Assembly: GCA_964016885.1 (NCBI GenBank)
Contig: OZ024741.1
Coordinates: forward strand, 158,906,001 to 158,970,000
Length of the DNA stretch: 64,000 bases
Reading direction: 5' to 3'
Source of the DNA: Eledone cirrhosa
Lineage: Eukaryota
Both the position numbers and the translations under genes were made by a program. Of this stretch, positions 6,001 to 59,439 are shown piece after piece. Within the stretch, counting starts at the first letter, position 1. Every line of letters starts with the position of its first letter. Under the pieces are notes generated by a model. It ran no database searches. It had not been told where the DNA came from and saw only the letters and a list, made by a program, of their open reading frames with translations.

Positions 6001-9000
6001 GGGGTGGAGGTGATGTTGGCTATGTTTGAGGTGATGTTGGCTATGTTTGAGGTGGGGGTGGTGATGTTGGCTATGTTTGAGTTGGTGGTGGAGGTGATGT
6101 TGGCTATGTTTGAGGAGGTGGTGGTGGTGGTGATGTTGGCTATGTTTGAGGTGGTGGTGGTGATGTTGGCTATGTTTGAGGTGGAGGTGGAGGTGATGTT
6201 GGCTATGTTTGAGGTGGGGGTGGTGATGTTGGCTATGTTTGAGGAGGTGGTGGTGGTGGTGATGTTGGCTATGTTTGAGGTGGGGGTGGTGGTGATGTTG
6301 GCTATGTTTGAGGAGGTGGTGGTGGTGGTGATGTTGGCTATGTTTGAGGTGGGGGTGGTGGTGATGTTGGCTATGTTTGAGGTAGTGGTGGAGGTGATGT
6401 TGGCTATGTTTGAGGTGGTGGTGGAGGTGATGTTGGCTATGTTTGAGGTGGGCGTGGTGGTGATGTTGGCTATGTTTGAGGTAGTGGTGGAGGTGATGTT
6501 GGCTATGTTTGAGGTGGGGGTGGAGGTGGTGTTGGCTATGTTTGAGGTGGGGATGGAGGTGGTGTTGGCTATGTTTGAGGAGGTGGTGGAGGTGATGTTG
6601 GCTATGTTTGAGGTGGGGGTGTAGGTGATGTTGGCTATGTTTGAGGAGGTGGTGGTGATGTTGGCTATGTTTGAGGTGGGGGTGGAGGTGATGTTGGCTA
6701 TGTTTGAGGTAGTGGTGGAGGTGATGTTGGCTATGTTTGAGGTGAGGGTGGAGGTGATGTTGGCTATGTTTGAGGTGGGGGTGTAGGTGATGTTGGCTAT
6801 GTTTGAGGAGGTGGTGGTGGTGATGTTGGCTATGTTTGAGGTGGGGGTGGAGGTCATGTTGGCTATGTTTGAGGTGGTGGTGGAGGTCATGTTGGCTATG
6901 TTTGAGGTGGTGGTGGTGGTGATGTTGGCTATGTTTGAGGTAGTGGTGGAGGTGATGTTGGCTATGTTTGAGGTGGGGGTGGAGGTGATGTTGGCTATGT
7001 TTGAGGTGGTGGTGGAGGTCATGTTGGCTATGTTTGAGGTGGTGGTGGTGGTGATGTTGGCTATGTTTGAGGTAGTGGTGGAGGTGATGTTGGCTGTTTG
7101 AGGTGGTGGTGGAGGTCATGTTGGCTATGTTTGAGGTGGTGGTGGAGGTGATGTTGGCTATGTTTGAGGTGCTGGTGGAGGTGATGTTGGCTATGTTTGA
7201 GGTGGTGGTGATGTTGGCTATGTTTGAGGTGGGTGTGGAGGTGATGTTGGCTATGTTTGAGGTGGTGGTGGAGGTGATGTTGGCTATGTTTGAGGTGGTG
7301 GTGATGTTGGCTATGTTTGAGGTGGGGGTGGAGGTGATGTTGGCTATGTTTGAGGTGGTGGTGGAGGTGATGTTGGCTATGTTTGAGGTGGGGGTGGAGG
7401 TGATGTTGGCTATGTTTGAGGTGGTGGTGGAGGTGATGTTGGCTATGTTTGAGGTGGTGGTGGAGGTGATGTTGGCTAAGTTTGAGGTGGTGGTGATGTT
7501 GGCTATGTTTGAGGTGGGGGTGGAGGTGATGTTGGCTATGTTTGAGGTGGTGGTGGAGGTGATGTTGGCTATGTTTGAGGTGGTGGTGATGTTGGCTATG
7601 TTTGAGGTGGGGGTGGAGGTGATGTTGGCTATGTTTGAGGTGGTGGTGGAGGTGATATTGGCTATGTTTGAGGTGGTGGTGGAGGTGATGTTGGCTATGT
7701 TTGAGGTGGTGGTGATGTTGGCTATGTTTGAGGTGGTGGTGGAGGTGATGTTGGCTATGTTTGAGGTGGGGGTGGAGGTGATGTTGGCTATGTTTGAGGT
7801 GGTGGTGGTGATGTTGGCTATGTTTGAGGTGGGGGTGGAGGTGATGTTGGCTATGTTTGAGGTGGGGGTGGAGGTGATGTTGGCTATGTTTGAGGTGATG
7901 TTGGCTATGTTTGAGGTGGGGGTGGTGATGTTGGCTATGTTTGAGTTGGTGGTGGAGGTGATGTTGGCTATGTTTGAGGAGGTGGTGGTGGTGGTGATGT
8001 TGGCTATGTTTGAGGTGGTGGTGGTGATGTTGGCTATGTTTGAGGTGGAGGTGGAGGTGATGTTGGCTATGTTTGAGGTGGGGGTGGTGATGTTGGCTAT
8101 GTTTGAGGAGGTGGTGGTGGTGGTGATGTTGGCTATGTTTGAGGTGGGGGTGGTGGTGATGTTGGCTATGTTTGAGGAGGTGGTGGTGGTGGTGATGTTG
8201 GCTATGTTTGAGGTGGGGGTGGTGGTGATGTTGGCTATGTTTGAGGTAGTGGTGGAGGTGATGTTGGCTATGTTTGAGGTGGTGGTGGAGGTGATGTTGG
8301 CTATGTTTGAGGTGGGCGTGGTGGTGATGTTGGCTATGTTTGAGGTAGTGGTGGAGGTGATGTTGGCTATGTTTGAGGTGGGGGTGGAGGTGGTGTTGGC
8401 TATGTTTGAGGTGGGGATGGAGGTGGTGTTGGCTATGTTTGAGGAGGTGGTGGAGGTGATGTTGGCTATGTTTGAGGTGGGGGTGTAGGTGATGTTGGCT
8501 ATGTTTGAGGAGGTGGTGGTGATGTTGGCTATGTTTGAGGTGGGGGTGGAGGTGATGTTGGCTATGTTTGAGGTAGTGGTGGAGGTGATGTTGGCTATGT
8601 TTGAGGTGAGGGTGGAGGTGATGTTGGCTATGTTTGAGGTGGGGGTGTAGGTGATGTTGGCTATGTTTGAGGAGGTGGTGGTGGTGATGTTGGCTATGTT
8701 TGAGGTGGGGGTGGAGGTCATGTTGGCTATGTTTGAGGTGGTGGTGGAGGTCATGTTGGCTATGTTTGAGGTGGTGGTGGTGGTGATGTTGGCTATGTTT
8801 GAGGTAGTGGTGGAGGTGATGTTGGCTATGTTTGAGGTGGGGGTGGAGGTGATGTTGGCTATGTTTGAGGTGGTGGTGGAGGTCATGTTGGCTATGTTTG
8901 AGGTGGTGGTGGTGGTGATGTTGGCTATGTTTGAGGTAGTGGTGGAGGTGATGTTGGCTGTTTGAGGTGGTGGTGGAGGTCATGTTGGCTATGTTTGAGG

Positions 9001-12000
9001 TGGTGGTGGAGGTGATGTTGGCTATGTTTGAGGTGCTGGTGGAGGTGATGTTGGCTATGTTTGAGGTGGTGGTGATGTTGGCTATGTTTGAGGTGGGTGT
9101 GGAGGTGATGTTGGCTATGTTTGAGGTGGTGGTGGAGGTGATGTTGGCTATGTTTGAGGTGGTGGTGATGTTGGCTATGTTTGAGGTGGGGGTGGAGGTG
9201 ATGTTGGCTATGTTTGAGGTGGTGGTGGAGGTGATGTTGGCTATGTTTGAGGTGGGGGTGGAGGTGATGTTGGCTATGTTTGAGGTGGTGGTGGAGGTGA
9301 TGTTGGCTATGTTTGAGGTGGTGGTGGAGGTGATGTTGGCTAAGTTTGAGGTGGTGGTGATGTTGGCTATGTTTGAGGTGGGGGTGGAGGTGATGTTGGC
9401 TATGTTTGAGGTGGTGGTGGAGGTCATGTTGGCTATGTTTGAGGTGGTGGTGGAGGTGATGTTGGCTATGTTTGAGGTGGTGGTGGAGGTGATGTTGGCT
9501 ATGTTTGAGGTGGTGGTGGAGGTCATGTTGGCTATGTTTGAGGTGGTGGTGGTGGTGATGTTGGCTATGTTTGAGGTGGTGGTGATGTTGGCTATGTTTG
9601 AGGTGGGGGTGGAGGTGATGTTGGCTATGTTTGAGGTGGGGGTGGAGGTGATGTTGGCTATGTTTGAGGTGGGGGTGATGTTGGCTATGTTTGAGGTGGG
9701 GGTGGAGGTGATGTTGGCTATGTTTGAGGTGGGGGTGGAGGTGATGTTGGCTATGTTTGAGGTGGTGGTGGAGGTGATGTTGGCTATGTTTGAGGTGGTG
9801 GTGGAGGTCATGTTGGCTATGTCTGAGGTGGTGGTGGTGGTGATGTTGGCTATGTTTGAGGTGGTGGTGATGTTGGCTATGTTTGAGGTGGGGGTGGAGG
9901 TGATGTTGGCTATGTTTGAGGTGGGGGTGGAGGTGATGTTGGCTATGTTTGAGGTAGTGGTGGTGATGTTGGCTATGTTTGAGGTGGTGGTGGAGGTGAT
10001 GTTGGCTATGTTTGAGGAGGTGGTGGTGGTGATGTTGGCTATGTTTGAGGTGGTGGTGGAGGTGATGTTGGCTATGTTTGAGGAGGTGGTGGTGGTGATG
10101 TTGGCTATGTTTGAGGTGGTGGTGGAGGTGATGTTGGCTATATTTGAGGTGGTGGTGGAGGTGATATTGGCTATGTTTGAGGTGGTGGTGGAGGTGATGT
10201 TGGCTATGTTTGAGGTGGTGGTGGTGGTGATGTTGGCTATGTTTGAGGTGGTGGTGGAGGTGATGTTGGCTATGTTTGAGGTGGGGGTGGAGGTGGTGTT
10301 GGCTATGTTTGAGGTGGTGGTGGTGATGTTGGCTATGTTTGAGGTGGGGGTGGAGGTGATGTTGGCTATGTTTGAGGTAGTGGTGGTGGTGATGTTGGCT
10401 ATGTTTGAGGTGGTGGTGGAGGTGATGTTGGCTATGTTTGAGGTGGTGGTGATGTTGGCTATGTTTGAGGTGGTGGTGGAGGTGATGTTGGCTATGTTTG
10501 AGTTGGTGGTGGAGGTGATGTTGGCTATGTTTGAGGTGGGGGTGGAGGTGATGTTGGCTATGTTTGAGGTGATGTTGGCTATGTTTAAGGTGGGGGTGGT
10601 GATGTTGGCTATGTTTGAGGTGGGGGTGGTGATGTTGGCTATGTTTGAGGAGGTGGTGGTGATGTTGGCTATGTTTGAGGTGGAGGTGGAGGTGATGTTG
10701 GCTATGTTTGAGGTGGGGGTGGTGATGTTGGCTATGTTTGAGGAGGTGGTGTTGGTGGTGATGTTGGCTATGTTTGAGGTGGGGGTGGTGGTGATGTTGG
10801 CTATGTTTGAGAAGGTGGTGGTGGTGGTGATGTTGGCTATGTTTGAGGTGGGGGTGGTGGTGATGTTGGCTATGTTTGAGGTAGTGGTGGAGGTGATGTT
10901 GGCTATGTTTGAGGTGGTGGTGGAGGTGATGTTGGCTATGTTTGAGGTGGTGGTGGAGGTGATATTGGCTATGTTTGAGGTGGTGGTGGAGGTGATGTTG
11001 GCTATGTTTGAGGTGGTGGTGGTGGTGGCTATGTTTGAGGTGGTGGTGGAGGTGATGTTGGCTATGTTTGAGGTGGGGGTGGAGGTGATGTTGGCTATGT
11101 TTGAGGTGGTGGTGGTGATGTTGGCTATGTTTGAGGTGGGGGTGGAGGTGATGTTGGCTATGTTTGAGGTGGGGGTGGAGGTGATGTTGGCTATGTTTGA
11201 GGTGATGTTGGCTATGTTTGAGGTGGGGGTGGTGATGTTGGCTATGTTTGAGGTGGGGGTGGTGATGTTGGCTATGTTTGAGGAGGTGGTGGTGGTGGTG
11301 ATGTTGGCTATGTTTGAGGTGGTGGTGGTGATGTTGGCTATGTTTGAGGTGGAGGTGGAGGTGATGCTGGCTATGTTTGAGGTGGGGGTGGTGATGTTGG
11401 CTATGTTTGAGGAGGTGGTGGTGGTGGTGATGTTGGCTATGTTTGAGGTGGGGGTGGTGGTGATGTTGGCTATGTTTGAGGAGGTGGTGGTGGTGGTGAT
11501 GTTGGCTATGTTTGAGGTGGGGGTGGTGGTGATGTTGGCTATGTTTGAGGTAGTGGTGGAGGTGATGTTGGCTATGTTTGAGGTGGTGGTGGAGGTGATG
11601 TTGGCTATGTTTGAGGTGGGCGTGGTGGTGATGTTGGCTATGTTTGAGGTAGTGGTGGAGGTGATGTTGGCTATGTTTGAGGTGGGGGTGGAGGTGGTGT
11701 TGGCTATGTTTGAGGTGGGGGTGGTGATGTTGGCTATGTTTGAGGAGGTGGTGGTGATGTTGGCTATGTTTGAGGTGGAGGTGGAGGTGATGTTGGCTAT
11801 GTTTGAGGTGGGGGTGGTGATGTTGGCTATGTTTGAGGAGGTGGTGTTGGTGGTGATGTTGGCTATGTTTGAGGTGGGGGTGGTGGTGATGTTGGCTATG
11901 TTTGAGAAGGTGGTGGTGGTGGTGATGTTGGCTATGTTTGAGGTGGGGGTGGTGGTGATGTTGGCTATGTTTGAGGTAGTGGTGGAGGTGATGTTGGCTA

Positions 12001-15000
12001 TGTTTGAGGTGGTGGTGGAGGTGATGTTGGCTATGTTTGAGGTGGTGGTGGAGGTGATATTGGCTATGTTTGAGGTGGTGGTGGAGGTGATGTTGGCTAT
12101 GTTTGAGGTGGTGGTGGTGGTGGCTATGTTTGAGGTGGTGGTGGAGGTGATGTTGGCTATGTTTGAGGTGGGGGTGGAGGTGATGTTGGCTATGTTTGAG
12201 GTGGTGGTGGTGATGTTGGCTATGTTTGAGGTGGGGGTGGAGGTGATGTTGGCTATGTTTGAGGTGGGGGTGGAGGTGATGTTGGCTATGTTTGAGGTGA
12301 TGTTGGCTATGTTTGAGGTGGGGGTGGTGATGTTGGCTATGTTTGAGGTGGGGGTGGTGATGTTGGCTATGTTTGAGGAGGTGGTGGTGGTGGTGATGTT
12401 GGCTATGTTTGAGGTGGTGGTGGTGATGTTGGCTATGTTTGAGGTGGAGGTGGAGGTGATGCTGGCTATGTTTGAGGTGGGGGTGGTGATGTTGGCTATG
12501 TTTGAGGAGGTGGTGGTGGTGGTGATGTTGGCTATGTTTGAGGTGGGGGTGGAGGTGGTGTTGGCTATGTTTGAGGAGGTGGTGGAGGTGATGTTGGCTA
12601 TGTTTGAGGTGGGGGTGTAGGTGATGTTGGCTATGTTTGAGGAGGTGGTGGTGATGTTGGCTATGTTTGAGGTGGGGGTGGAGGTGATGTTGGCTATGTT
12701 TGAGGTAGTGGTGGAGGTGATGTTGGCTATGTTTGAGGTGAGGGTGGAGGTGATGTTGGCTATGTTTGAGGTGGGGGTGTAGGTGATGTTGGCTATGTTT
12801 GAGGAGGTGGTGGTGGTGATGTTGGCTATGTTTGAGGTGGGGGTGGAGGTCATGTTGGCTATGTTTGAGGTGGTGGTGGAGGTCATGTTGGCTATGTTTG
12901 AGGTGGTGGTGGTGGTGATGTTGGCTATGTTTGAGGTAGTGGTGGAGGTGATGTTGGCTATGTTTGAGGTGGGGGTGGAGGTGATGTTGGCTATGTTTGA
13001 GGTGGTGGTGGAGGTCATGTTGGCTATGTTTGAGGTGGTGGTGGTGGTGATGTTGGCTATGTTTGAGGTAGTGGTGGAGGTGATGTTGGCTGTTTGAGGT
13101 GGTGGTGGAGGTCATGTTGGCTATGTTTGAGGTGGTGGTGGAGGTGATGTTGGCTATGTTTGAGGTGGTGGTGGAGGTGATGTTGGCTATGTTTGAGGTG
13201 GTGGTGATGTTGGCTATGTTTGAGGTGGGGGTGGAGGTGATGTTGGCTATGTTTGAGGTGGTGGTGGAGGTGATGTTGGCTATGTTTGAGGTGGTGGTGA
13301 TGTTGGCTATGTTTGAGGTGGGGGTGGAGGTGATGTTGGCTATGTTTGAGGTGGTGGTGGAGGTGATGTTGGCTATGTTTGAGGTGGGGGTGGAGGTGAT
13401 GTTGGCTATGTTTGAGGTGGTGGTGGAGGTGATGTTGGCTATGTTTGAGGTGGTGGTGGAGGTGATGTTGGCTATGTTTGAGGTGGTGGTGATGTTGGCT
13501 ATGTTTGAGGTGGGGGTGGAGGTGATGTTGGCTATGTTTGAGGTGGTGGTGGAGGTCATGTTGGCTATGTTTGAGGTGGTGGTGGAGGTGATGTTGGCTA
13601 TGTTTGAGGTGGTGGTGGAGGTCATGTTGGCTATGTTTGAGGTGGTGGTGGAGGTGATGTTGGCTATGTTTGAGGTGGTGGTGATGTTGGCTATGTTTGA
13701 GGTGGGGGTGGAGGTGATGTTGGCTATGTTTGAGGTGGTGGTGGAGGTGATGTTGGCTATGTTTGAGGTGGTGGTGATGTTGGCTATGTTTGAGGTGGGG
13801 GTGGAGGTGATGTTGGCTATGTTTGAGGTGGTGGTGATGTTGGCTATGTTTGAGGTGGGGGTGGAGGTGATGTTGGCTATGTTTGAGGTGGTGGTGGAGG
13901 TGATGTTGGCTATGTTTGAGGTGGGGGTGGAGGTGATGTTGGCTATGTTTGAGGTGGGGGTGGAGGTGATGTTGGCTATGTTTGAGGTGGTGGTGGAGGT
14001 GATGTTGGCTATGTTTGAGGTGGAGGTGGAGGTGATGTTGGCTATGTTTGAGGAGATGGTGGTGGTGATGTTGGCTATGTTTGAGGTGGTGGTGGAGGTG
14101 ATGTTGGCTATGTTTGAGGTGGTGGTGGTGGTGATGTTGGCTATGTTTGAGGTGGGGGTGGAGGTGATGTTGGCTATGTTTGAGGTAGTGGTGGAGGTGA
14201 TGTTGGCTATGTTTGAGGTAGTGGTGGAGGTGATGTTGGCTATGTTTGAGGTGGGGTGGAGGTGATGTTGGCTATGTTTGAGGTGGGGGTGGAGGTGATG
14301 TTGGCTATGTTTGAGGTGGTGGTGGAGGTGGTGATGTTGGCTATGTTTGAGGTGGTGGTGGAGGTGATGTTGGCTATGTTTGAGGTGGGGGTGGAGGTGA
14401 TGTTGGCTATGTTTGAGGTAGTGGTGATGTTGGCTATGTTTGAGGTGGGGGTGGAGGTGATGTTGGCTATGTTTGAGGTGGGGGTGGAGGTGATGTTGGC
14501 TATGTTTGAGGTGGGGGTGGAGGTGATGTTGGCTATGTTTGAGGTGGTGGTGGAGGTGATGTTGGCTATGTTTGAGGAGGTGGTGGTGGTGATGTTGGCT
14601 ATGTTTGAGATAGTGGTGGAGGTGATGTTGGCTATGTTTGAGGTGGGGGTGGAGGTGATGTTGGCTATGTTTGAGGTGGGGGTGGAGGTGATGTTGGCTA
14701 TGTTTGAGGTAGTGGTGGAGGTGATGTTGGCTGTGTTTGAGGTGGGGTGGAGGTGATGTTGGCTATGTTTGAGGTAGTGGTGGAGGTGGTGTTGGCTATG
14801 TTTGAGGTGGTGGTGGAGGTGGAGGTGATGTTGGCTATGTTTGAGGTAGTGGTGGAGGTGATGTTGGCTATGTTTGAGGTGGGGGTGGAGGTGATGTCGG
14901 CTATGTTTGAGGTGGGGGTGGAGGTGATGTTGGCTATGTTTGAGGTGGGGGTGGAGGTGATGTTGGCTATGTTTGAGGTAGTGGTGGTGGTGATGTTGGC

Positions 15001-16126
15001 TATGTTTGAGGTGGGGGTGGAGGTGATGTTGGCTATGTTTGAGGTAGTGGTGGAGGTGATGTTGGCTATGTTTGAGGTGGGGGTGGAGGTGATGTTGGCT
15101 ATGTTTGAGGTAGTGGTGGAGGTGATGTTGGCTATGTCTGAGGTGGGGGTGGAGGTCATGTTGGCTATGTTTGAGGTGGGGGTGGAGGTGATGTTGGCTA
15201 TGTTTGAGGTGGGGGTGGAGGTGATGTTGGCTATGTTTGAGGTGGGGGTGGAGGTGATGTTGGCTATGTTTGAGGTAGTGGTGGAGGTGATGTTGGCTAT
15301 GTTTGAGGTGGGGGTGGAGGTGATGTTGGCTATGTTTGAGGTGGGGGTGGAGGTGATGTTGGCTATGTTTGAGGTGGGGGTGGAGGTGATGTTGGCTATG
15401 TTTGAGGTAGTGGTGGAGGTGATGTTGGCTATGTTTGAGGTGGTGGTGGAGGTGATGTTGGCTATGTTTGAGGTGGGGGTGGAGGTGATGTTGGCTATGT
15501 TTGAGGTGGGGGTGTAGGTGATGTTGGCTATGTTTGAGGTGGTGGTGGAGGTGATGTTGGCTATGTTTGAGGTGGTGGTGGAGGTGATGTTGGCTATGTT
15601 TGAAGTAGTGGTGGAGGTGATGTTGGCTATGTTTGAGGTGGTGGTGGTGGTGGAGGTGATGTTGGCTATGTTTGAGGTAGTGGTGGAGGTGATGTTGGCT
15701 ATGTTTGAGGTGGGGGTGGAGGTGATGTTGGCTATGTTTGAGGTGGGGGTGGAGGTGATGTTGGCTATGTTTGAGGTGGTGGTGGAGGTGATGTTGGCTA
15801 TGGTTGAGGTGGTGGTGGAGGTGATGTTGGCTATGTTTGAGGTGGGGGTGGAGGTGATGTCGGCTATGTTTGAGGTGGTGGTGGAGGTGATGTTGGCTAT
15901 GTTTGAGGAGGTGGGGGTGGAGGTGATGTTGGCTATGTTTGAGGTAGTGGTGGTGGTGATGTTGGCTATGTTTGAGGTGGTGGTGGAGGTGATGTTGGCT
16001 ATGTTTGAGGTGGTGGTGGAGGTGATGTTGGCTATGTTTGAGGTGGTGGTGGTGGTGATGTTGGCTATGTTTGAGGTGGTGGTGGAGGTGATGTTGGCTA
16101 TGTTTGAGGTGGTGGTGGAGGTGGTG
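1..16126. repeat. Giant G-rich tandem satellite: near-invariant 21-bp core GTGATGTTGGCTATGTTTGAG plus variable (GTG/GGG/GAG)n linker; main unit 33 bp (range about 21-39 bp), roughly 500 units, open at the left window edge
   Basis: Seen directly. Unit lengths differ almost always by multiples of 3. The long VEVMLAMF / SNIANITSTTT / HLKHSQHH ORFs are translations of this repeat. Confidence 0.98.
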
Positions 16127-36840: not shown

Positions 36841-37517
36841 AGATATATATATAGTCAAGGGTTGTGAAAAATCACTGAGGATGAGATGTTGATGTTCAAT
36901 ATTTCATTTATAATAATTATTAGTAATTCTAACATGTGTCTCGATGCAATATAATATCTTGGGCCCATAAAATCTGAATTGTTACACAATCGGTTACTTC
37001 ATACTGCCAGGGAATATCGTAATCACATCACTTCAGAGAAAATATAATTAGGAATATATGTGTGAGTAAGAGAATAGGTATCTATACAAATTGACAAATC
37101 AAGGTTTTAGGATTGATAGAATGGCAGTACATTTATACTTCACACACACGCAATGGTTTAGGAAGACCCTTTAGTTGTGTCAAGGACATGATAACCTTCC
37201 TAGTGTTGGTAATCTACACGATAAAAGCACCCAGTAAATGCTGTAAAGTGGTAGCCATTTGAAGGGCAACAAGCTTGCCAAATAAAGAGTTGGGAGGACC
37301 TTCCAGTTGTGTGGGAGATATAGCAACTTCTCTGGAGCTGATGCCACAATTAGATGCACTTGTTGGAATGCAGAACCATATGTAAGCGAGAAGAGGCATA
37401 CCTCCTACCTGTCTGGGAGGTCAGTCTCCCCGCTTCAGTACAGACTTAATCTGTGAAGATCCATCCAATTCTTGCTAGCAGGGAAAGTGGACAATAAATT
37501 ATGATTAAATTATGATA

Positions 37518-38978
37518 TACAAGCCATGTATAAAGAAACAGTCAGCAAGGTTAGAATTAACAACGAATATAGTGAAGAATTTAGTATAAAAGTAGGTGTT
37601 CATCAAGACTCTGTCCTTAGCCCTCTCCTATTTATTATTGCCCTTCAGGCTATAACAGAGGAGTTTAAGACCGGCTGCCCAATGATCTAACTCTCATAGC
37701 TGAATCTATGGCTGAACTAAAGAAAAAATTCCAAACATGGCAGCATGGCCTAGAATCAAAAGGCCTTAACTTGTTCTAGTATGTAGAAAGAAAAATAGGG
37801 CACAGGTGCCCTCTGGGAAATGGCCATGCTGAGTGTGTAGGAAAGGAATAGGTAAAAATTTCATTTTATGTCCCAAATGCAAACTATGGGTACATAAAAG
37901 ATGTAGTGGGATCACAGGTAAGCTATCTCAGAACGTAGATTTTATATATGGCCGATGCTCAGGTGCAATAAGTAGCAAGTGCCCACAGGATACTAGCTCC
38001 TTCTATTGCCCAGATGGTTCTATAGAAATAGTGGACACTTGCCATTACATGACTGACAAAATCAGCAGTGGTGGAGGGTGCTCTGAAAGTACAGTAGCCA
38101 GAGTCAGAACGGGATGGAAAAAGTTCAGAGAGCTTATACCGCTGTTGGCCACAAGAGGTTTCTCTGTAAAAATGAAAGGCAGATTGTATGATGCAGTGAG
38201 ACATGGGCATTGTGTGCAGAGGACCTGCGCAGACTGGAAAGGAACGAAGCATGCATGCTCTGCTGGATGTGTAATAGTAATATACGTGAACGGCAAAACA
38301 TAAATGAACTAAGTGAGAAATTAGGAATAAGAGGGATCAGATGCTGTTTACTTGAGAGAAGACTACGTTGGTATGGTCACGTGATGCGCATGAAAGATGA
38401 GAGTTGTATAAAAAGTGCAGGGCGATCAAAATTGATGGAAGTTATGGAGTAGGTAGACCCAGAAAAACCTGGGACGATTTGATAAATTCCGACCTTACAC
38501 ACTTGCACCTCTCTAAGACAATGTCACTGGACCGAGATCTTTGGCACTACGCAGTAATACAGAAGACCCGCCTTGCCTATGTACAAAGCAAAACCTACAG
38601 TCAGTAGGCACCTCTTAACCAAAAATACACCCCAACCCACTGCCCCTACTCCATCCTCCCAGTCCCACCAACACCACCCTTTCTCTGTAAAGTTATGTTG
38701 GTACTGCAACATCCAGTCCAAACTAATGAGGTCGTGTAGGTGTCATGACAAAAAAAACACACAGTCCACGCTGTAATGTGGCCGTGTAGGTAACATGGTA
38801 AAAAGCTCCCAGTCCACACTGTAAATGTGGTTGGTGTTAGGAAGGGCATCCAGCCGTAGAAAACCTGCCAGACAGTCCTATACGAGCGAGATGACCAATC
38901 TTGCTTCAAGTGGGACAATTCCCGTCTAACCCATGCTAGCGTGGAAGATAGACGTTAAATGATGATGATGATGATGAT
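37518..38978 (+). mobile_element. 5'-truncated RTE-type LINE (RT C-terminal part, PHD-like Cys/His insert, RRLRWYGHV, GRPRKTW), frameshifted
   Basis: VGVHQ.SVLSPLLF, CRKGIGKNFILCPKCKLWVHKRCSGI and RRLRWYGHVMRM translations; (GAT)n tail. Confidence 0.92.
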
Positions 38979-39480
38979 ATTCACACACACACAAATATAT
39001 ATGTCTGTGGTTAATGGTGTTCACCTCATGATCTTAAGATCTTGAGTTTGATTCCTGCTGGCATGTTGTGTCCTTGGGCAAGACATTTCATTTTATGCTG
39101 CTCCAGTCCATTCTGCTGGAAAGAATGAGTTGTACCTGAAATTCAAAATGCCAGCAATATCAGAATCTGTGTCCTGCTGAATCTCCCTGAGAATTATATA
39201 AATGGTGCACATATCCGAGGAATGCTCAGCCACTTGCATATTAATTTAATGAGCTAGCTGATCCATTGTTCAAACAACTGAAACATTCATCATAACCTAC
39301 AGAGTTCCATCCATAACAGACACATGTATATCTATATATATATCATTATCATCTTGTTACATCTACTTCCCATGCTGGTATGGGTCGGATGCTTTTCCTA
39401 ATACTAATCACATGATAGAATGTGCTGAGTGCATTTTTTGTGGCCACCAGTACTATCACTTTACAGAATGAACTGGTCTT

Positions 39481-40130
39481 TATGCTCCGATGGATGTGTA
39501 ATAGTAATATACGTGAACGGCAAAGCATAAACAAATTGAGAGAGAGACTGAGCATAAGAGGAATCAAATGCTGTGTGCAGGAGAGGAGGTTACGTTGGTT
39601 TGGACATGTGATGCGTATGAAGGATGACAGCTGCATAAAAAGGTGCAAAACACTAGAAGTCGATGGAAGCCGCAAAGTGGGGAGACCCAAAAAGATCTGG
39701 GATGAGGTAAAAAAAGCCGACCTTACCCAAATACACCTCTCAAAGGCGATGACACATGACCATGACCTCTGGTGTCACGCAGTAATACAGAAGACCCGAC
39801 CCCTTATGAGTACAAGCCGAAGCTGAAAGATATAGACAATATGCCCCTACCCCCTCCCACTGCAAAGTGGTCGTGGAGGTGTCACGGCAAAAAAATGACC
39901 CAGCCCACACTGTAAAGTGGACGTGTAGGCGCCATGGAAAAAAGCACCCAGCACTCACTGTAAATGTGGTTGGTGTTAGGAAGGGCATCCAGCTGTAGAA
40001 ATCAAACCAGAATCAGTTCCCGTATGAGCAAAAGATGATCAGCCGACTGGCTACTGCCCACAACAGGACAACCCGTCTAACCCATGCTAAAGAGGAAGAA
40101 CGGACGTAAAACGGTGATGATGATGATGAT
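39481..40130 (+). mobile_element. RTE-type LINE 3' fragment (subfamily B)
   Basis: MLRWMC..RRLRWFGHVMRM..GRPKKIW; (GAT)n tail. Confidence 0.9.
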
Positions 40131-42447: not shown

Positions 42448-42514
42448 CCACAATATATCATATAACTCAGTAACATAGGTTTTCTCTGTTTCAACCAATT
42501 CCCTGTAGACATGC
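42448..42514 (-). CDS. MCF2L: RhoGEF exon, DH conserved region 1: HVYRELVETEKTYVTELYDILW
   Basis: tgcttcag| and |gtaagt; 67 nt, phase 2 to 0; EL..TE..YV..L motif. Confidence 0.97.
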
Positions 42515-43006: not shown

Positions 43007-43062
<56 letters not shown>

Positions 43063-43249
43063 ATACTTGGGGAGGGTCATATTTGTATAATATTGCCAGA
43101 ATTAATAACAGAACACACTCACTGTTTGGTTGGTTTTCGCTTCTGTGTCTTTTATATCGGTAATCTAATTTATTCAGTCCTCAATGTTGCCATTGACTGA
43201 CCAACGGTCAAAAATAATACAGATTCAATATAGACACACACACATATAT

Positions 43250-43303
43250 ATAGTTTATCAAAGTTCTTTCGTTGCACATCTGCAACATCGTCAGTGGTGC
43301 TAT
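43250..43303 (-). ncRNA. Degenerate minimal type I hammerhead ribozyme motif (sense to the GEF pre-mRNA)
   Basis: atagcacca-CTGACGA-T-gttgca(gatg)tgcaac-GAAA-gaac-TT-tgataaactat. Perfect 6-bp stem II; stem I has one mismatch and an internal loop. Confidence 0.55.
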
Positions 43304-43780
43304 TGTTTCCTCCCGTTACATTGTATGTCTACGCCATCTTTATTTAGTCTGTTTATTTTATTTTGCCTTCTTTGCGCATGCGTTTGCGTGTGTGTATAGT
43401 GTTTTGTTTGATGTGTGTTCGTGATTGAGTGAAATAGAACTTAGAAGGCCAAGACTAAACAGAAAGAATGAATGGAATAACAACAACACCCAAACAAAGA
43501 GAAGTATAAATAAATAAATAAATAGATAAATAAATAAATAAATACATACACAAGCACAATAACAACAAACACATATAAACACACACTAGTAAAGATAGAA
43601 TACATTAACCGATACACAGTCACCCAATCACGAACACACATCAAACAAAACACTATACACACACGCAAACGCATGCGCAAAGAAGACAAAATAAAATAAA
43701 CAAACAAATAAATAAATAAATAAATATATAAACAGACTAAATAAAGATGGCGTAGACATACAATGTAATGGGAGGAAACA

Positions 43781-43834
43781 ATAGCACCACTGACGATGTT
43801 GCAGATGTGCAATGAAAGAACTTTGATAAACTAT
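43781..43834 (+). ncRNA. Mirror copy of the degenerate hammerhead motif
   Basis: CTGACGA at 43790-43796, GAAA at 43814-43817; the closing C of stem II is changed to T (G:U pair). Confidence 0.5.
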
Positions 43835-44299
43835 ATATATGTGTTTGTGTTTATATTGTATCTGTATTATTTTTGACCGTTGGTCAGTCAATGGCAACAT
43901 TGAGGACCGAATAAATTAGATTACCGATATAAAAGACACAGAAGCGAAAAGCGAAAACCAACCAAACAGTGAGTGTGTTCTGTTATTAATTCTGGCAATA
44001 TTACACAAATATGACCTCCCCAAGTATAACAATATTTGTTTCGACACACGATTTCATATAAAAAACCTCGCAAAACTATATATAAATATATATATATAAA
44101 GAAAAGCTTCTACAGGACTAGAACTGTTTCATTCATGAGAAATCATATATATATAAATATATATATATATGCAAAAGTTCTATTTAAATTGTTGGGATAC
44201 AACAACAAATATTTTTATAACTGATATAAAGCACTCAACAAATAATTGGAGTAAAAATACGATATTGACAAATGGAAACTATATTTATAAAACCATATT

Positions 44300-44364
44300 T
44301 ATTTCATTATACATATTTCAAGGACACCAAGTTAAATTATGGTGTGCTTTCATCAGATAAAATA
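44300..44364 (-). ncRNA. Minimal type I hammerhead ribozyme (sense to the GEF pre-mRNA)
   Basis: Exact reverse complement of 45074-45138. Confidence 0.75.
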
Positions 44365-45073
44365 TAATATAGAGCAGTTTTATAAATAAATATTGACATA
44401 CCCTTAAAGAATGCAACCATTACTGTTGGAAGCTCCCGGATAGTGGAGTTATATTTATACTTATAGTATTAGGTAAGTTAGTATTGGATATTTTAAAATA
44501 AGCCGTTGGGTTACGGAGAAAGAGAAAGAGAGAGAGCAGAATAAAAGAGAGAAAAAAGAGAGAGAAAAGAGAGAGAGAGAGAGAGAGCATAACAACAGAG
44601 AGAGAATAGAAATAGAAAAAATAGAAATAGAAAACGTATTGATCTCAATATTATAACTGATTAACTAAACATCTAATCATATTTAAACAATGGTTAAATT
44701 TCTCATATTATATATGTATATTCCATTCATGATTATTAACATTTCTAATTTTATTTATTCATTTCATCTCAAATGTTAAGATAAATCAACAAGATATGAC
44801 TTGGAGTTTTTACTCTCTCTCTCTCTCTTTTTCCTATTTCTATTTATTTTCTCTCTCTGTTGTTATGCTCTCTCTCTCTCACTTTTCTCTCTGTTATTCT
44901 GCTCTCTCTCTTTCTCTTTCTCCGTAACCCAATGGCTTATTTTAAAATATCCAATACTAACTTACCTAATACTATAAGTATAAATATAACTTCACTATCT
45001 GGGAGCTTCCAACAGTAATGGTTGCATTCTTTAAGGGTATGTCAATATTTATTTATAAAACTGCTCTATATTA

Positions 45074-45138
45074 TATTTTATCTGATGAAAGCACACCATA
45101 ATTTAACTTGGTGTCCTTGAAATATGTATAATGAAATA
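45074..45138 (+). ncRNA. Minimal type I hammerhead ribozyme
   Basis: Stem I TATTTTAT (45074-81) / ATGAAATA (45131-38), 8 bp with one G:U. Core CTGATGA 45082-88. Stem II AAGCACACCA / TGGTGTCCTT, 9 of 10 paired. GAAA 45119-22, then TATGTA-TA, with predicted cleavage after A45130 (AUA triplet). Confidence 0.75.
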
Positions 45139-45178
45139 AATATGGTTTTATAAATATAGTTTCCATTTGTCAATATCG

Positions 45179-45211
<33 letters not shown>

Positions 45212-45244
45212 AGAGAGAGAGAATGAGGGGGGGGGGGGAATATG

Positions 45245-45599: not shown

Positions 45600-46735
45600 T
45601 CAAATTCATGATCTCAGTCAAAGACAGGTAGTCACTGTTTAGGACAGCATTCTTCCTTCACCCTATGAGATATCATCTGGTGTACTGCAGAGATCTGTTC
45701 TTGGCCCCCTTTTGTTTGTTGCATATATTAATGACATAGATGCCAACTTAAAGAATGCCACAGTACTGAAATATGCAGATGACATCAAGCTGTACCTTGA
45801 GATAAAAAAGACAGATCCTGAACACTATAGATCTTTCCTGCAATCTGACCCGGACACAATGCAACAATGGATCATGGACTGGCAACTCAAGCTGGCTGTG
45901 GACAAGTGTACCTCCATGTATTTTGGGAGGAAAAACCCAGCGTCCACTTACTCCCTCCACAACACTGATATCAAGGAGTCTTCTTGTGAATGTGACCTGG
46001 ACATTACTGTCAGCAGCAATTTACGTTCGACGAAGCACATCTCTAAAATTGTCAAGAAGGCCGAGGGTGTCTTAGCATTACTCAGCAAGACCTTTGTCAG
46101 CCGCTCTCCAGCTATCTATTTAAAGCTGTATGTAGCTATGGTGTGGCCACACTTAGAATTTGCATTCCCAGACTGGAACCCCTATCCTGCTCAGACCTCC
46201 TGGAAACTGTTCAGAAACGTGCAACCAAGCGAATACCCTCCATCAGACATCTACCATACTCTGAACGCCCTGCTTCCCTGGACATGGATACATTGAAGCT
46301 CCGACGTCTGGCAACTGACTTGGTAAACACCCACAAAATTGTTAACCATCTTACCAACAACAACCCTGAGTACCTTTTTGATTTCCATGTGTCTAACACA
46401 TGTGGACATGCCTACAAAGTCAGAAAACGGCACAGTTCCCATGACTTTCGGAAACATTTTTTCATGCTCAGAATTGCTGAAGCATGGAACAAACTACCTG
46501 CATCAGTTGTTAGCTGTCGAGACACTGCATCCTTTAAAACCTCCATGCTTCCTGAGATTCGCCAACACTGCACCTAATATTCCCCCTCCATACACATGCA
46601 CACATTTATATCATGACTCATACACTATTCACTTCCCTGACATTTGTATATTATTCTATGTACTATACATGCACCTTTGATGAGTTGTAGTGCACCTGAG
46701 CACTGTACACAATAATTTCATTATTATTATTATTA
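45600..46735 (+). mobile_element. 5'-truncated CR1/L2-type LINE (RT domain to 3' UTR, (TTA)n tail), frameshifted
   Basis: SGVLQRSVLGPLLFVAYIND, YADDIKL, W...WQLKLAVDKC, PHLEFA..WNP, LETVQKRATK, FF..RIAEAWNKLPASVV. Confidence 0.92.
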
Positions 46736-48690: not shown

Positions 48691-49829
48691 AAATCAGGTT
48701 ACAGGATGGAGTCATACCCAATTGCAGGAAATAGGTTGGCAAAGGAAGGATTACTAAAGAAGAGGAAACAAGAAGAAACAAATCCCCAGGAGCTTTTATG
48801 TGATTGATTGATTTACTAGAAATAGCAGTCAAATCTGCCACAGATCTCATCCTACTGCTTTGAAAAAAGGGCCTACTGGATAATGTAGCCCAAGATAAAG
48901 CATATGTTTATGATCAGAGTTGGCTTGGGAATCAACAATAGCAACTAATGAGAAATTTGAAGCGAAAATTATTTAGAAAGAAAGATGAAAGTATCACTAA
49001 ACAGATTTTACAGGCAAAACCAACTGGCAGGAGACCGAGGAATAGACCCTGAGTAAGATGGTTGGATAACATCCATGAGTTTGGCTAGTCTCACTTAGGG
49101 ATCCAGTTGGATCAGTTGGAGATGCTTGCTTCTGACAGAATCCACCGGAAGGAGTGTTTGAGGATTCTTCCCCCCACGACCCTCTCAGGAATAAGTGGGT
49201 GAAGAAGATGAAGATGAAAGTAGAGTTGGAAAGAAGTTTAAAAATAAAAGGTTAGTGTTTGGTGGTTGGGAGTTGGTGGTTGGGAGTTGGTGGTTGATAG
49301 TTAGTGGTAGAAAGAATAAAATGTAAAATAGGAAAATATAAAGAAAGAAGAGAAAAAAAATTGAAAAGTGAGGAGTGGCAGGAGTTGGAGGCTGTTAATT
49401 GGGGGTTGGGAGCTGGAGGCTGTTCGTTGGTGGCTGGAAGTTGGAGGCTGTTGGTTGGGAGTTGGAGGCTGTTTGTTGGTAGCTGGGAGTTGGAGGCTCT
49501 TAGATGGTGATTGGATGTTGAAGGTTGGTAGTTAGTGGTTGGAAGTTGAAGGCTGGTAGTTGGTGGTTGGTGGTCACTAGTGTGTGGTTAGTAGCTGGTA
49601 GTCACTAGTGTGTGGTTGGGAGTTGGGGGTTGGTGGTTAATGGCTACTAGATGGTGGTTAATTATTGGTTACTAATTAGTGATTGGTGGTTAGTGATAGT
49701 GATTGGTGATTAGTGATAGTTATTGGTTGCTAATTAGTAGTTTGTGATTAGTGGTAGTTAGTTTTTGGTTGCTAATTAGTGGTTACACAGGTGTTAGTGT
49801 TTAATAATAGGGAGAAAACTGTGACCTAC

Positions 49830-49922
49830 ATGTAATCTGCCATGAAACAGCATTTGGATTTATGAGAAAGAAGATGCTCTTGTAGCAGACTGGCTTGACA
49901 AGGCTCTATAGCAGAATGTCTT
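49830..49922 (-). CDS. Candidate alternative symmetric phase-2 exon: RHSAIEPCQASLLQEHLLSHKSKCCFMADY
   Basis: Long pyrimidine tract ending ctacaccag|, donor AT|gtaggt; 93 nt, open in the required frame. No conserved motif. Confidence 0.35.
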
Positions 49923-50614
49923 CTGGTGTAGGGAAACAATGGAGAGGAAAATATATATGGGAAAGGAAAGAAAGAAAAAAAAAATCAAATAAAAAAAGAA
50001 ATAACAATAATGATGATAAGAACAACAGCAACAATGTGTATGTATGAATCTATAACTTCTGATGGATGGCGTCATAGAGATGCTATAGTGACATACGACA
50101 TGTCCTGAGCACTTTAAACTTGGCAGAGCACTTCCTCTCTCTAGGTCAGCTGATTTCTTCCAGAGAGCATGATAGAGAGGAAGTAATCATAGGCACATGG
50201 CTGGATAGTTCAAGAGAGAGGCTAGTTGGTTAAATCGACCCCAGTGCTTGACTGGTACTTTATTTTATTAAATCCAGAAGGTAAAGTTGACAATAATGAT
50301 TTCTTTATCAAACACGTGAGTTTACAAAAATATCAAGAATAGTATAGGATAATAAAATGTGGGTTTACATGAGAAATAATAATGGTTTCTTTCTTAACAA
50401 TAATAAAACAAAACAAAACTGATGCAGTAGACTTCCAGAAGGAGTCTGTACTCCCTCCACTCCCACAACACACACACAGTGTTGCACACACCTCAAGAAC
50501 ATGAACGAGCATCTGGCAATGCAGTAGGAACTTGCATGAAACGATTAAAGAAATGATGATGGTGATGATGATCATGATGATGACGACAACGACAACAACA
50601 ACAACAACAACAAC

Positions 50615-54214: not shown

Positions 54215-55148
54215 TGATAATAATAATAATAATGCTTTCTTTATTAACCACAAGGGTTGACATAAAGTAGACATTAAGGACAGTACAGGACAATACAGGA
54301 CGGTACAAATGGGCATTTCTGATGTAAAAAAACCCAAAAAACAGAGGATGTAATAAAAAGAACAATGAAGAATTCCCCAATAGGGGGGAGACTTCTAAGG
54401 GCCATCGTGGAGAAAGCCCATTAAAAAAAGCAACGGTAACCCTGACCACCAGGACAAGTGTCCTCTCCCAGTTTTCCACCTTCAGTTTACAGGCATATAC
54501 TCAGAGTAGGCCCATTCACTCGGGCCATTCTTGCCTCTCTCACCCATCTGTCAACAAAATGCTGGAAAGAGAGCACTTCCCTCTTTACCCTGATTTTCCT
54601 TTTCGAATGAAATTTGAAAAAGTTAATCAGGGCATCACCGAAGAGGTAAGTGCTCGTCTTCAGCCCTTTCAGATGCATCCACCATACTATCTCTTTCGCC
54701 ATGGCCACCAGACAGATAAAAACTGCATGCCCTTCCTGGCTAAAGGAAGAGGGCGGGGAAATCCTCACGATGGACTCAGCTGATAGCCGGATCAGTTCTA
54801 CACGCGACAGCAGGTGTTCGACATAAACCCACAAGTCAACAATGCTCGGACACTGAACGAATGCATGCAGGACGGTTTCGTCGCCCAGCATGCATCTCGG
54901 ACATGCCCGGCTGATGGCACTTCCGTGCCTGTAGAGTTTATCCCGAACTGGCAAAGCTCCTCGGTATAACTGCCAGGCCAGGGATTTCTGGAAATTGTCC
55001 ATAGGCCCCGGCCCGAAAGTTCTTCCAAAGAGATTGGCTAGTTGATTTTCGTTGACGCCTAGAGTTTCCCCAAGCACATCGTCGCTCTTCCCCTCCACTA
55101 ATCCTCTATAGAACGCCAAGGTGAAGTTTCCACCGATCACATTGCCCG
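54215..55148 (-). mobile_element. L1/Tx1-type LINE 3' fragment (zf-RVT C-terminus, 3' UTR, (TTA)n tail)
   Basis: LAWQLYRGALPVRDKL...CPRC...ETVLHAFVQC is a zf-RVT-type CCHC motif. A second 3'-end copy lies at about 55445-55560. Confidence 0.88.
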
Positions 55149-55691
55149 ATAATAATGATAATAATAATAATGGTTTCTGATTGAGGTACAAGGCTAGCAA
55201 TTTTGGGGGAAGGGGGAAAGTTGATTAAATCAACCCTAGTGCATGACTTGTACTTTATTTTCATCCCCACGGGGTCAATAAAGTAAAGCACCAGTAATAT
55301 ACTGGGGTTGATTTAATCGACTTCCCTCTCCCCTAAAAATTGTTTGCCTGGTGCCTAAATCAGAAACTATTATTATTATTATTTTATCTTTACCAATTTA
55401 GTATAACAAAAACAACATTAATAAATTGATAATGATAAAATAATAATAATAATAATAATGATTTCTTTATTAACCACAAGCGTTTACATAAAGTAGACAT
55501 TAAGGACAGTACAGGACAATACAGGGCGGTACAAATGGGCATTTCTGCGTGTAAAAAAATAATAACAACAATAATGAGAATATTGAAAAGTAACAGCCAC
55601 ACAGATAGGCACAGGTCCTGAACTATATATACAGTAAATAACAACAGCAAATATATTGGTAAGATCAATGAATAAAAGTTGGGGTATTTAC

Positions 55692-55724: not shown

Positions 55725-56300
55725 CTACAAATAACAATAGAAAAATGGAAGAACAACAAGTTAACAGACAATCCAAAGTACCCATCATAACCACAGGGTT
55801 AAGGAATTGGGGTGGATGAGATGGGATGATACTAGACTTAGTTTCTGGGGTAACCTTCTATATTAGTTGTTGTAGTACTTGTTGTAATAGTAGTGGTTGT
55901 ACTACTGCTGCTAGCTGCTTTTTTTTCTTTTCTTTTCTTTTCTTTTCTTTTCTTTAATTTTAAAATATATTTTGTATTATTTCTTTACAATGAAATACAC
56001 TTTGTAAAACCAATGCTTGTCTGTCACATATTGCCTTTGTTGTACTAATACATCTCGTAGCAGTAATACTACAGTAGTAGTAGTAGTAGTAGTAGTAGTA
56101 CTACTACTGGTGCTGCTACTATGACTACAAATGGTAGTTACTAATTAACAACATGCCAGTTGTAGTAGTAGTAGTTGTTGGGATGGTAGTGGTAGTAGTT
56201 GTTAACAATGTACTAGTGATGTTATTAATACTACTACTACTACTGATAGTTACTTAGTAGCAGTATGGAAGTATACTGGTAGTGTTAAGAAATATATATA

Positions 56301-57874
56301 TCATCATCATCACCGTTTTACGTCCGTTCTTCCACGCTAGCATGGGTTAGACGGGTTGTCTTGTTGTGAGCAGTGTCCGGTCGGCTGACCTTGTCTTGCT
56401 CATACAGGAACTGATTCTGGCTTGATTTCTACAGCTGGATGCCCTTCCTAACGCCAACCTCATTTACAGTGAGTGCTGGGTGCTTTTTTCCATGGCGCCT
56501 ACACGTCCACTTTGCAGTGGAAGGGGGTGGGGGCATATTGTCTATATGCTTCAGCTTCGGCTTGTTCCTGCGGGGGGTCGGGTCTTCTGTATTACTGCGT
56601 GACGCCAGAGGTCACGGTCATGTGTCATCACCCTTGAGAGGTGCAATTGGGTAAGGTTGGCCTTTATCACCTCATCCCAGGTCTTCTTGGCTCTCCCCAC
56701 TCTGCAGCTTCCATCTACTTCTAGTGTTCTGCACCTTTTTATGCAGCTGTCATCCTTCATACGCATCACATGTCCATACCAACGCAACCGCCTCTGCTGC
56801 ACACAGCATTTGATTCCTCTGATGCTCAGTCTCTCTCTCAATTCGTTTATACTTTGCCGTTCGCGTATATTACTATTACACAACCATCAGAGCTGGCAAG
56901 CTTCGTTTCTTTCTAATCTGTGCAAGTCTTCTACAGACAGCGCCCAGGTTTCACTTCCATGTAACATTGGTGTTCGTATATACGCATCATACAGTCTGTC
57001 TTTCATTTTTAGGGAAAAGCCTTTTGCAGCTAGTAGTGGCAGTAGCTCCCTGAACTTCTTCCATCCCGTTCTTACCCTAGGTATTGTACTTTCCGAACAC
57101 CCACCTCCGCTGCTAATTCGGTCACCTAGGTAGCAGAAGCTGTCTACTGTTTCTACAGAGCCCTCCCAGACTTTGGTGCTGCTTGTTTCCTGTGGCTGTT
57201 TCCTGTGGCTGTTTGCGCAGCTGCTACATATGAAGCCTACATTCTTAGTTAAACTTCCTGAGATCCCACTACATCTCTTGTGTACCCATTGTTTGCATTT
57301 GGGGCAGAGGATGGAGTTCCTACCTACACCTTTCCTACATACTGAGCAAGGCCATTTCCCTGAGGGAATCTGGATTCTGTTTTCTTGTCTACTTACAAGA
57401 ACTTTAGTCTTTGTCAGGTTAACTTAGAGACCCTTTATTTCTAGTCCCTGCTTTCTTCTCTAGTTCCACCATGGATTCAGCTATAAGTGCGAGATCATCC
57501 GCATACAGGAGTTCCCATGGGCATCCAGTCTTAAACTCCTCCATTATTGCCTGCAAAACTATATTGAACAGGAGAGGGCTAAGAACAGAGCCCTGGTGGA
57601 CACCGACCTGTATGCTAAATTCCTTGCTATAGTCATTGCTAACTCTAACTTTGCTGACTGCTCCTCTATACATGGCTTGTATGGCTTTCACAAGCCATTC
57701 ATCTACTCCTAATTTTCTAAGAGCCCACCAGATATTAGCACGGGGGACTCTGTCGAAGGCTTTTTCCAGATCGACGAATGCCAGGTAGAGCGGCTTACTT
57801 TTAGCTAGGTACTTTTCCTGTAACTACCGCACAAGGAAGAGGGCATCAGTGGTGCCTTTTCCTGGTACAAACCC
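56301..57874 (-). mobile_element. 5'-truncated RTE-type LINE (RT with LLYADDL, PHD-like insert, subfamily B 3' UTR)
   Basis: LYLAFVDLEKAFDRVP, VGVHQGSVLSPLLF, WELLYADDL, WPCSVCRKGVGRNSILCPKCKQWVHKRC, RRLRWYGHV; (GAT)n tail. Confidence 0.94.
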
Positions 57875-58154: not shown

Positions 58155-59439
58155 GATGTGGACGATATTTGTTCGCAATTTTTAACTGCTAATTTTATGC
58201 AAATTCTTTTTACTTCCGTTGTCACTCTTGTCTTCATAAAAACAGTGACTGTATTTCCATTATTTATTTTCAGAATAATTGATTATGAATAATTTTGAAC
58301 CTCCAAATTTGTGGAAGAGACACCTGAGTTCTTCTTGGAATCCGTGCCAGGAGGACAAATAAGGAAATTTCAGACTTTCTCAGCGTCAGCAGGAGAATGG
58401 TGGAAAAGGTCAGAAAGGAATTGGAAGATTCAGGATTCGACTACGAAGCAACATCAGAGAGGAAAACACATGATCGACGATCTGACGCCTTCAGAACGCC
58501 CAAGTTCGTCGCTGAAGTTCAGGATATCGTCAACAATGAACCTAGCAAGTCGATGTGTGCCATTGCAAGGGAGAAAGGCATGGATGAATAGCTCATTAGG
58601 CTGGTGGTACATGAAGACATTCGCTACGTTTCATACAAGATGAGGAAAGGACAATTTCTGTCAAAGGCGATGCAAGAAAAACGACTGAAGCACGCAAAGA
58701 AGCTGATCAACAAGTTGAAACACCCACTGGAGCCAGACATGCTGTGGTTTTTCTCCGATGAGAAAAACTTCTGCCAAGACCAGAAGATCAACTCCCAGAA
58801 CAACAGGTGGCTCGCTGTCTCATCCAAAGACGTGCCCAGAGTCATGCAGACAAAGTTTCCAACGACAACATTGGTCTTAGGTGTCGTCAGCAGTCAAGGT
58901 GACGTCATGCCACCTCACTTCTTCCCTGAGGGCCTCAAGCTGAACACCGATGGCTACATCTGCGTTCTGAGCGAGGTAGTAAAGCCCTGGATCGATCAGG
59001 TAGCTGTGGCAGCAAGACTCAGCACCCTGCCATACCAGCTGAAAGACCCAAGTCTGGCTGTCAGAGAACTTTGTCAACCACACTTCACCTGACATCTGGC
59101 TTCCCAGATCGCCTGACTGCAACCCCTTCGACTTCTTTGTGTGGGGTGCAGTGGGACGAGACACCAACAGATCTAGCTGCAATACGAAAGACGATCTGAA
59201 GGCCAGGATCACAAGTGCCTTTCGGAGCCTAAGTCGGGGGACAGTGACGAAGGCCTGTAGCCGGTTCCGAGGCCACCTTGAGGCCGTCATCAAAACCAAT
59301 GGCGGGTTTATTGAGTGAGATCGAAAGAACAAGTCATGATGACAAACTGACCTAAGTTTGATAAATATATCTTAAAAAATAAAACTACTGTGTTATTTTT
59401 TCCTAGGCAATAATTTTGCGAACAGATATCGTCCGCACC

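Follow-up and report, generated by a model that had tools for sequence, protein, structure and literature searches.

In the 64,000-nt stretch of Eledone cirrhosa DNA analysed here (the window), an intron of a RhoGEF gene harbors a palindrome with two outward-facing hammerhead motifs. We read it, with high confidence, as two 5'-truncated 3' ends of a Penelope-like element (PLE) that lie head to head in intronic (TA)n, likely stem from one insertion event and are likely inert. The insert is real but ordinary, and its outward layout is already in print, in the sections consulted of PMC4209133, PMC8557442 and PMC3846280.

An inverted-repeat search recovered two arms of 365 nt (44252-44616 and 44822-45186) that are 92% complementary without gaps and, once a GA microsatellite is excluded, identical at 256 of 259 positions. 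Together with a descriptor search, it located the palindrome and its two outward-facing motifs exactly where a first-pass annotation, made from the sequence alone, had reported them. The description of two inverted arms holds in part: the arms are present, but they are not symmetric, as the left one is ~86 nt longer and the right one runs on without a break into the apparent spacer, which consists of element sequence. The intronic location given by the same annotation is confirmed by minus-strand exon matches to DBS on both sides of the insert (Table 1); it is the match upstream of the insert that places it within an intron. The exon after the first DH-domain exon matches Dbs structures (E 5.9e-7), and by these exon matches the host is the octopus DBS/MCF2L gene, encoded on the minus strand. 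Both ends of the insert merge into (TA)n, and no target-site duplication is readable. We asked whether the TTT interruption present in each TA flank might be a duplicated target, and discarded the idea since other copies show interruptions of this kind in both orientations.

Table 1. Coordinates in the window of the insert, its two joined copies and the neighbouring host exons
Feature	Coordinates	Strand	Evidence and remarks
Host exon match upstream of the insert	49823..49948	-	tblastn, 66.7% over 42 aa, E 7.6e-11
First DH-domain exon of the DBS/MCF2L-like host RhoGEF, downstream of the insert	42448..42514	-	tblastn with octopus DBS P0046, 87.5% over 24 aa, AG/GT borders
Left (TA)n target tract	44144..44170		Target-site duplication indistinguishable there
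One-sided ~86-nt tail of the inverted copy	44171..44256	-	Outer limit uncertain within TA
Inverted 5'-truncated copy of the element's 3' end (pLTR), 378 bp	44257..44634	-	Matches L035 8897-8528 at 94.7%; junction read
Type I hammerhead motif, 65 nt, sense on the host transcript	44300..44364	-	Predicted cut after 44308
Direct 5'-truncated copy, 3' UTR and pLTR, 546 bp, tail-less, ending in (TA)n	44636..45181	+	Matches L035 8318-8924 at 91.5%
Type I hammerhead motif, 65 nt	45074..45138	+	Core 45082-45088, stem II 45089-45118, GAAA 45119-45122, predicted cut after 45130
Right (TA)n target tract	45182..45212		Sequence reading

The palindrome resolves into two copies of unequal length, with a single C between the end of the left piece at 44634 and the start of the right piece at 44636. 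What appears as a spacer belongs to the right copy: many other copies match from 44633 on, and the 5' break was read. The arms end at the two recurring 3' end points of the family, one with a tail and one without. Judged by sequence matches, the ~86-nt extension on the left is the PLE tail: positions 44165-44431 of the window, comprising tail and adjoining arm, match positions 5005-4738 of the long copy L038 at 98.5%, and the order in this long copy is pLTR, tail sequence and ORF start. Among seven other inverted pairs with both ends listed, the tail is confined to one arm in six, while the seventh is rearranged. Most 3' ends listed for the family merge into TA repeats. The differences between the arms amount to three substitutions, all on the right arm and two of them at CpG; all three are private, occurring in none of the 19-21 other copies scored per site.

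The parent element is abundant. A search with the arm yielded 1,415 candidates, and among the 40 scored, the top other copies are 96-99% identical; exact genomic copies of a 26-mer taken from the ribozyme number 6,562. In many copies, the homology continues far upstream of the arm. We fetched 13 regions of 9.9 kb around copies, most of which contain pieces of one ORF, upstream of the ribozyme and in the same sense; a single uninterrupted full-length ORF was found in none of the 13. In long copies, these pieces carry the motifs RWR, DKT and YRDD, a CxCx5C linker, a degenerate GIY-YIG, CxxC and CxH. The longer copies have the hammerhead in sense within the pLTR, and L038 has a pLTR at both ends (4738-4912 is repeated by 8698-8872 at 99.4%), with a hammerhead in each. 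Homologues of the ORF at 28-41% identity include proteins from Hydra vulgaris and Octopus bimaculoides, a profile of 28 homologues matches retron RT (E 0.004), and a predicted model of the ORF (mean pLDDT 74.6) resembles, though weakly, HIV RT and the I-TevI GIY-YIG domain (TM-target 0.61). Foldseek gave no match at E<=0.001, with all fold matches at E >= 0.048; Pfam scans of the ORF pieces and their homologues gave no family above the cut-off, and a single-sequence PDB search gave no match. On its sequence motifs, we consider the element an EN+ PLE, with RT plus, at the C terminus, a GIY-YIG domain in longer copies.

The features of the Hydra clade, as given in the consulted sections of PMC8557442, are RWK, DKT, a CxCx5C linker, CxxC/CxH in the endonuclease, (TA)n targets and hammerheads. 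We compared the motifs by eye in the ORFs of L031 and L040, where RWR stands in place of RWK; both show CxxC and CxH around E and N, and neither has a CCHH cysteine pair that separates GIY from YIG. Since no Pfam family scored above the cut-off and the fold matches are at best marginal, we place the element in the Hydra clade by visual comparison of these motifs and not by a tree. By the same comparison, the family with its ~86-nt tail and long 3' UTR appears as an additional Hydra-clade family. A literature search over titles and abstract openings, which covered few subscription papers, returned nothing about this family and nothing about a role as a switch.

The two 65-nt motifs are identical to each other, and in both arms the ribozyme is the majority sequence of the family. 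Their anatomy agrees with the original description: an 8-bp stem I (with one U-G), CUGAUGA, a stem II of nine pairs with a C-C mismatch, GAAA, UAUGUA and a UA site. A custom type I descriptor has two matches in the whole window, both in the arms. In 200 approximate dinucleotide shuffles of positions 16501-64000, the mean number of matches was 0.045 with the loose and 0.005 with the strict form, and none of the 200 reached two. The proposed check with Rfam covariance models turned out negative, with no hammerhead match at the gathering score or at E<=10. The folding z-score is only -1.59; stem III comes out unstable (-6.0 when included, -8.9 when left out), the self-pairing of the helix III 8-mer is weak (-2.2 kcal/mol vs -6.5 for a perfect palindrome), and co-folding of two 65-mers did not produce the double-hammerhead form.

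The covariation that the first-pass annotation had called for among copies is present among relatives. In a set of 13 motifs drawn from several families, pairing holds in 95.4% of cells, 12 of 15 pairs show two-sided change and none of 500 shuffles scored as high, in a result tilted toward structure because the rows were picked by a descriptor that requires stems, with sibling families sampled from the fetched loci only. The pair count took the outer five pairs of stem II, the inner part being folded family by family instead. Three of four diverged relatives that had first been found by BLAST also pass the descriptor, with stem II changes from A-U to G-C and from C-G to U-A; sibling families from the fetched loci retain core and helices, with stem sequences that differ. 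Given this covariation across sibling families and the relatives found first by BLAST, the hammerhead fold is likely under selection in the mobile element, with cleavage as a prediction. Its assignment to the type I hammerheads of PLE pLTRs is likewise upheld by the core, helices I and II and the sense location within the pLTR of long copies. The view that TATGTA is a CpG-decayed TACGTA has to be given up: decay of TACGTA after insertion would yield TATGTA and TACATA equally, and the exact counts are 6,562 for TATGTA, 18 for TACGTA and 0 for TACATA. TACGTA occurs in none of 100 flank-anchored copies among the matches listed, and TATGTA is present in a sibling family too.

For the origin of the insert, we build on what the consulted part of PMC11167929 reports, namely cleavage and extension of both strands of the target by a PLE protein, two RT start sites that define the tail, and no need of the protein for ribozyme cleavage in vitro. 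At the DBS locus, the element enzyme would have nicked both strands of a TA target, and reverse transcription would have been primed from each end, with one start at the tail site and the other at the tail-less site. The two short cDNAs would then have been joined at 44634/44636, which leaves both 3' ends, and hence both ribozymes, facing outward. For inverted copies, PMC3846280, in the sections consulted, prefers self-priming on an antisense template. Both this route and the joining of two cDNAs are proposals, which our data do not separate.

In the intronic insert, the ribozyme would be a passenger that serves the parent element. Only the left one is in sense on the host pre-mRNA, which is read from the minus strand; a tandem partner with which it could form a dimer is missing, and it is predicted to pair with the antisense arm, so that it would not cut. 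On the host transcript, it follows its antisense copy by 709 nt, and forcing stems I and II would cost ~86 kcal/mol relative to the hairpin in RNA folding predictions. These predictions support the earlier expectation that the antisense arm, being made first, would sequester the ribozyme. The step from there to a self-silencing design or a conditional switch finds no such support: the outward layout is that of known inverted 5'-truncated PLE insertions and common in the family, and nothing specific to this locus was found. Considering the predicted hairpin, the missing tandem partner, the unstable helix III and the report of a single minimal hammerhead without cleavage in vitro (PMC4209133, consulted in part), we think that the ribozyme is likely silent here, as a by-product of insertion. 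With no more than three changes between the arms, its intact motifs reflect youth rather than selection.

Among the first 100 of the 6,562 matches, all on contig C1, 15 minus-then-plus pairs lie within 1 kb, compared with one plus-then-minus pair; the chance expectation for these 100 matches is 0.13 neighbours of any kind. Thirty of the 100 matches listed sit in outward pairs, and most copies do not. By rough extrapolation from 15 pairs per 100 listed matches, there would be about a thousand such palindromes in the genome. In 12 outward pairs within 400 bp, counted by eye, four carry a non-majority variant common to both arms (in one case within the ribozyme core), six have private variants only and two equal the majority sequence; a pair with TACGTA also carries its variant in both arms. 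Pairs of this kind, with a variant in both arms, lie at 106441347/106441571, 168137844/168138072, 201548409/201548635 and 268033604/268033816 on contig C1 and 268729785/268730040 on contig C2. Variants common to both arms point to copying from one template or to gene conversion from arm to arm. Because rare variants recur in the two arms of some pairs, the family lends itself to studying how PLEs build their inverted halves.

The excess of outward over inward pairs could also be taken to mean that selection favours the outward palindrome, which silences its own ribozyme and would therefore be tolerated in transcribed introns. The 15-to-1 ratio within 1 kb among the first 100 matches listed and the predicted sequestration agree with this, but the bias is expected from the insertion chemistry, with head-to-head as the usual form (PMC3846280, in the part consulted), and most copies are unpaired, so we regard such selection as improbable. 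Even less probable is a host-used conditional switch, in which the hairpin blocks the ribozyme until it is released, by a folding change or by editing, for cleavage of the DBS pre-mRNA. While the insert is intronic, its ribozyme is identical to the family majority in both arms and its sequestration is predicted, such a switch would have to overcome the predicted ~86 kcal/mol with no sense partner for a dimer and an unstable stem III. Moreover, the intact motifs need no selection in a young copy of a mass family, and the same layout recurs at many loci and in a second family next door. ADAR editing is heavy in cephalopods, and we consider it very unlikely, if slightly less so than a switch at this locus taken by itself, that the thousand or so head-to-head stubs are self-muzzling hairpins kept in introns, some of which, such as the one in DBS, release the ribozyme, for instance upon ADAR editing, to cut the pre-mRNA.

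The long inverted arms and the TA context would also suit a DNA transposon of the MITE or foldback kind, in which the terminal inverted repeats are long, or else a retrozyme unit; we give this hardly any credence. A MITE or foldback identity is refuted by arm lengths and junctions that vary between loci, by the asymmetric ends and by the continuity of the arm with the RT ORF in long copies, and a retrozyme by the fact that the locus has an inverted pair and no tandem array of monomers. An assembly fold-back artefact is unlikely in the extreme. No listed contig or read bridges the junction itself, because this stretch was skipped as a repeat, but the right arm has its three private substitutions (compared with 19-21 other copies per site), the tail and the structure of the microsatellite also set the arms apart, and host exons follow in order on both sides. 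In addition, short-read contigs from one sample, which may be the assembly's own, show other head-to-head joints of the family, such as 44438 to 45003 in X1-X3. A search for sequencing runs found no RNA run among the holders listed. We retain the insertion of two joined PLE ends as the reading of this locus.

Our comparison with known systems refers to the sections consulted of each source. The element resembles the clade of Hydra-1_Obim and Penelope-13_HM in its RW(K/R), DKT, CxCx5C and CxxC with CxH motifs, its (TA)n targets and a type I hammerhead near the 3' end (PMC8557442). This source describes an inverted 5'-truncated PLE copy and the tail, and its supplement lists the hammerhead of Penelope-13_HM, with a 5'-truncated inverted copy, on both strands. 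The present family is distinct from Hydra-1_Obim, whose hammerhead differs in sequence from ours; ours is absent from the supplement as far as consulted. Most Hydra-clade elements are below 3 kb, whereas the body is ~4 kb here, with a 3' UTR of ~1.65 kb; the tail measures ~86 nt instead of 30-40, and the hammerhead has an A10.1-U11.1 pair and the C-C mismatch in stem II, unlike those of the clade (PMC8557442). Dual minimal hammerheads on opposite strands, 100-700 bp apart, are reported in PMC4209133. With the minimal and variant hammerheads of PLEs our motif shares type I topology, a long helix II and a tiny, near-palindromic helix III, but its stem I has 8 bp instead of 4-5, there is no extra base between 9 and 10.1 in the present pairing, and the self-pairing of helix III contains U-G pairs (PMC4209133). 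Insertions of Adineta vaga Penelope with inverted pLTRs are also head-to-head and have an optional tail on one inverted pLTR; at the present locus, by contrast, there is no long palindrome at the junction, no readable target-site duplication and no ORF left (PMC3846280). Finally, non-LTR retrozymes share the type I hammerhead and a proposed PLE origin, but are direct tandem repeats, in contrast to the inverted pair described here (bioRxiv 10.64898/2026.07.22.740005). As it stands, the insert is of small importance, adding one Hydra-clade family to a known pattern. With this family, one can test whether copies in introns are filtered according to how their ribozyme is oriented. A genuine switch used by the host would be novel, but nothing here points that way.

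Adjoining the palindrome, a second fold-back insert at 43055-44098 belongs to a different PLE family (2,712 candidates). Two hammerhead-like CTGACGA motifs face outward in it, at 43790 (+) and 43294 (-); they failed the type I descriptor on account of a short stem I. Relatives have an RT ORF with YVDD, a Cx4CxxC-type linker and GIY-YIG-like motifs, and on these motifs it is likely Neptune-type. Further hammerhead families occur near copies of the first element, in L004, L006, L008, L010, L013, L014, L016, L017, L030, L034 and L035; many of them have in common stem I, a mismatched C at position 4 of stem II and a palindromic or near-palindromic helix III, and L017 holds another outward pair, just 74 nt apart. 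ORF pieces of related elements lie beside copies in L034 (654-1871, minus strand), L039 (110-873, minus strand) and L033 (8445-9176, minus strand), those in L034 and L039 with Hydra-type motifs, which suggests shared (TA)n hot spots.

The introns of DBS contain other transposon remains, which we take, from their motifs, to be a Tc1/mariner-like transposase (58328-59318), a CR1-like RT piece (45643-46577), RTE-like LINE pieces in both orientations (37517-40127 and 56300-57823) and a Tx1/L1-like 3' ORF piece (54487-55224). Positions 1-16100 of the window are taken up by a G/T-rich tandem array, 16 kb in length and built on a unit of ~33 nt; it lies within a chromosome-scale contig and stops ~9 kb before the last DBS exon matched. 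Near another copy of the element, L037 contains a repetitive, Thr/Asp-rich and mucin-like open frame of 1,649 codons (3-4950).
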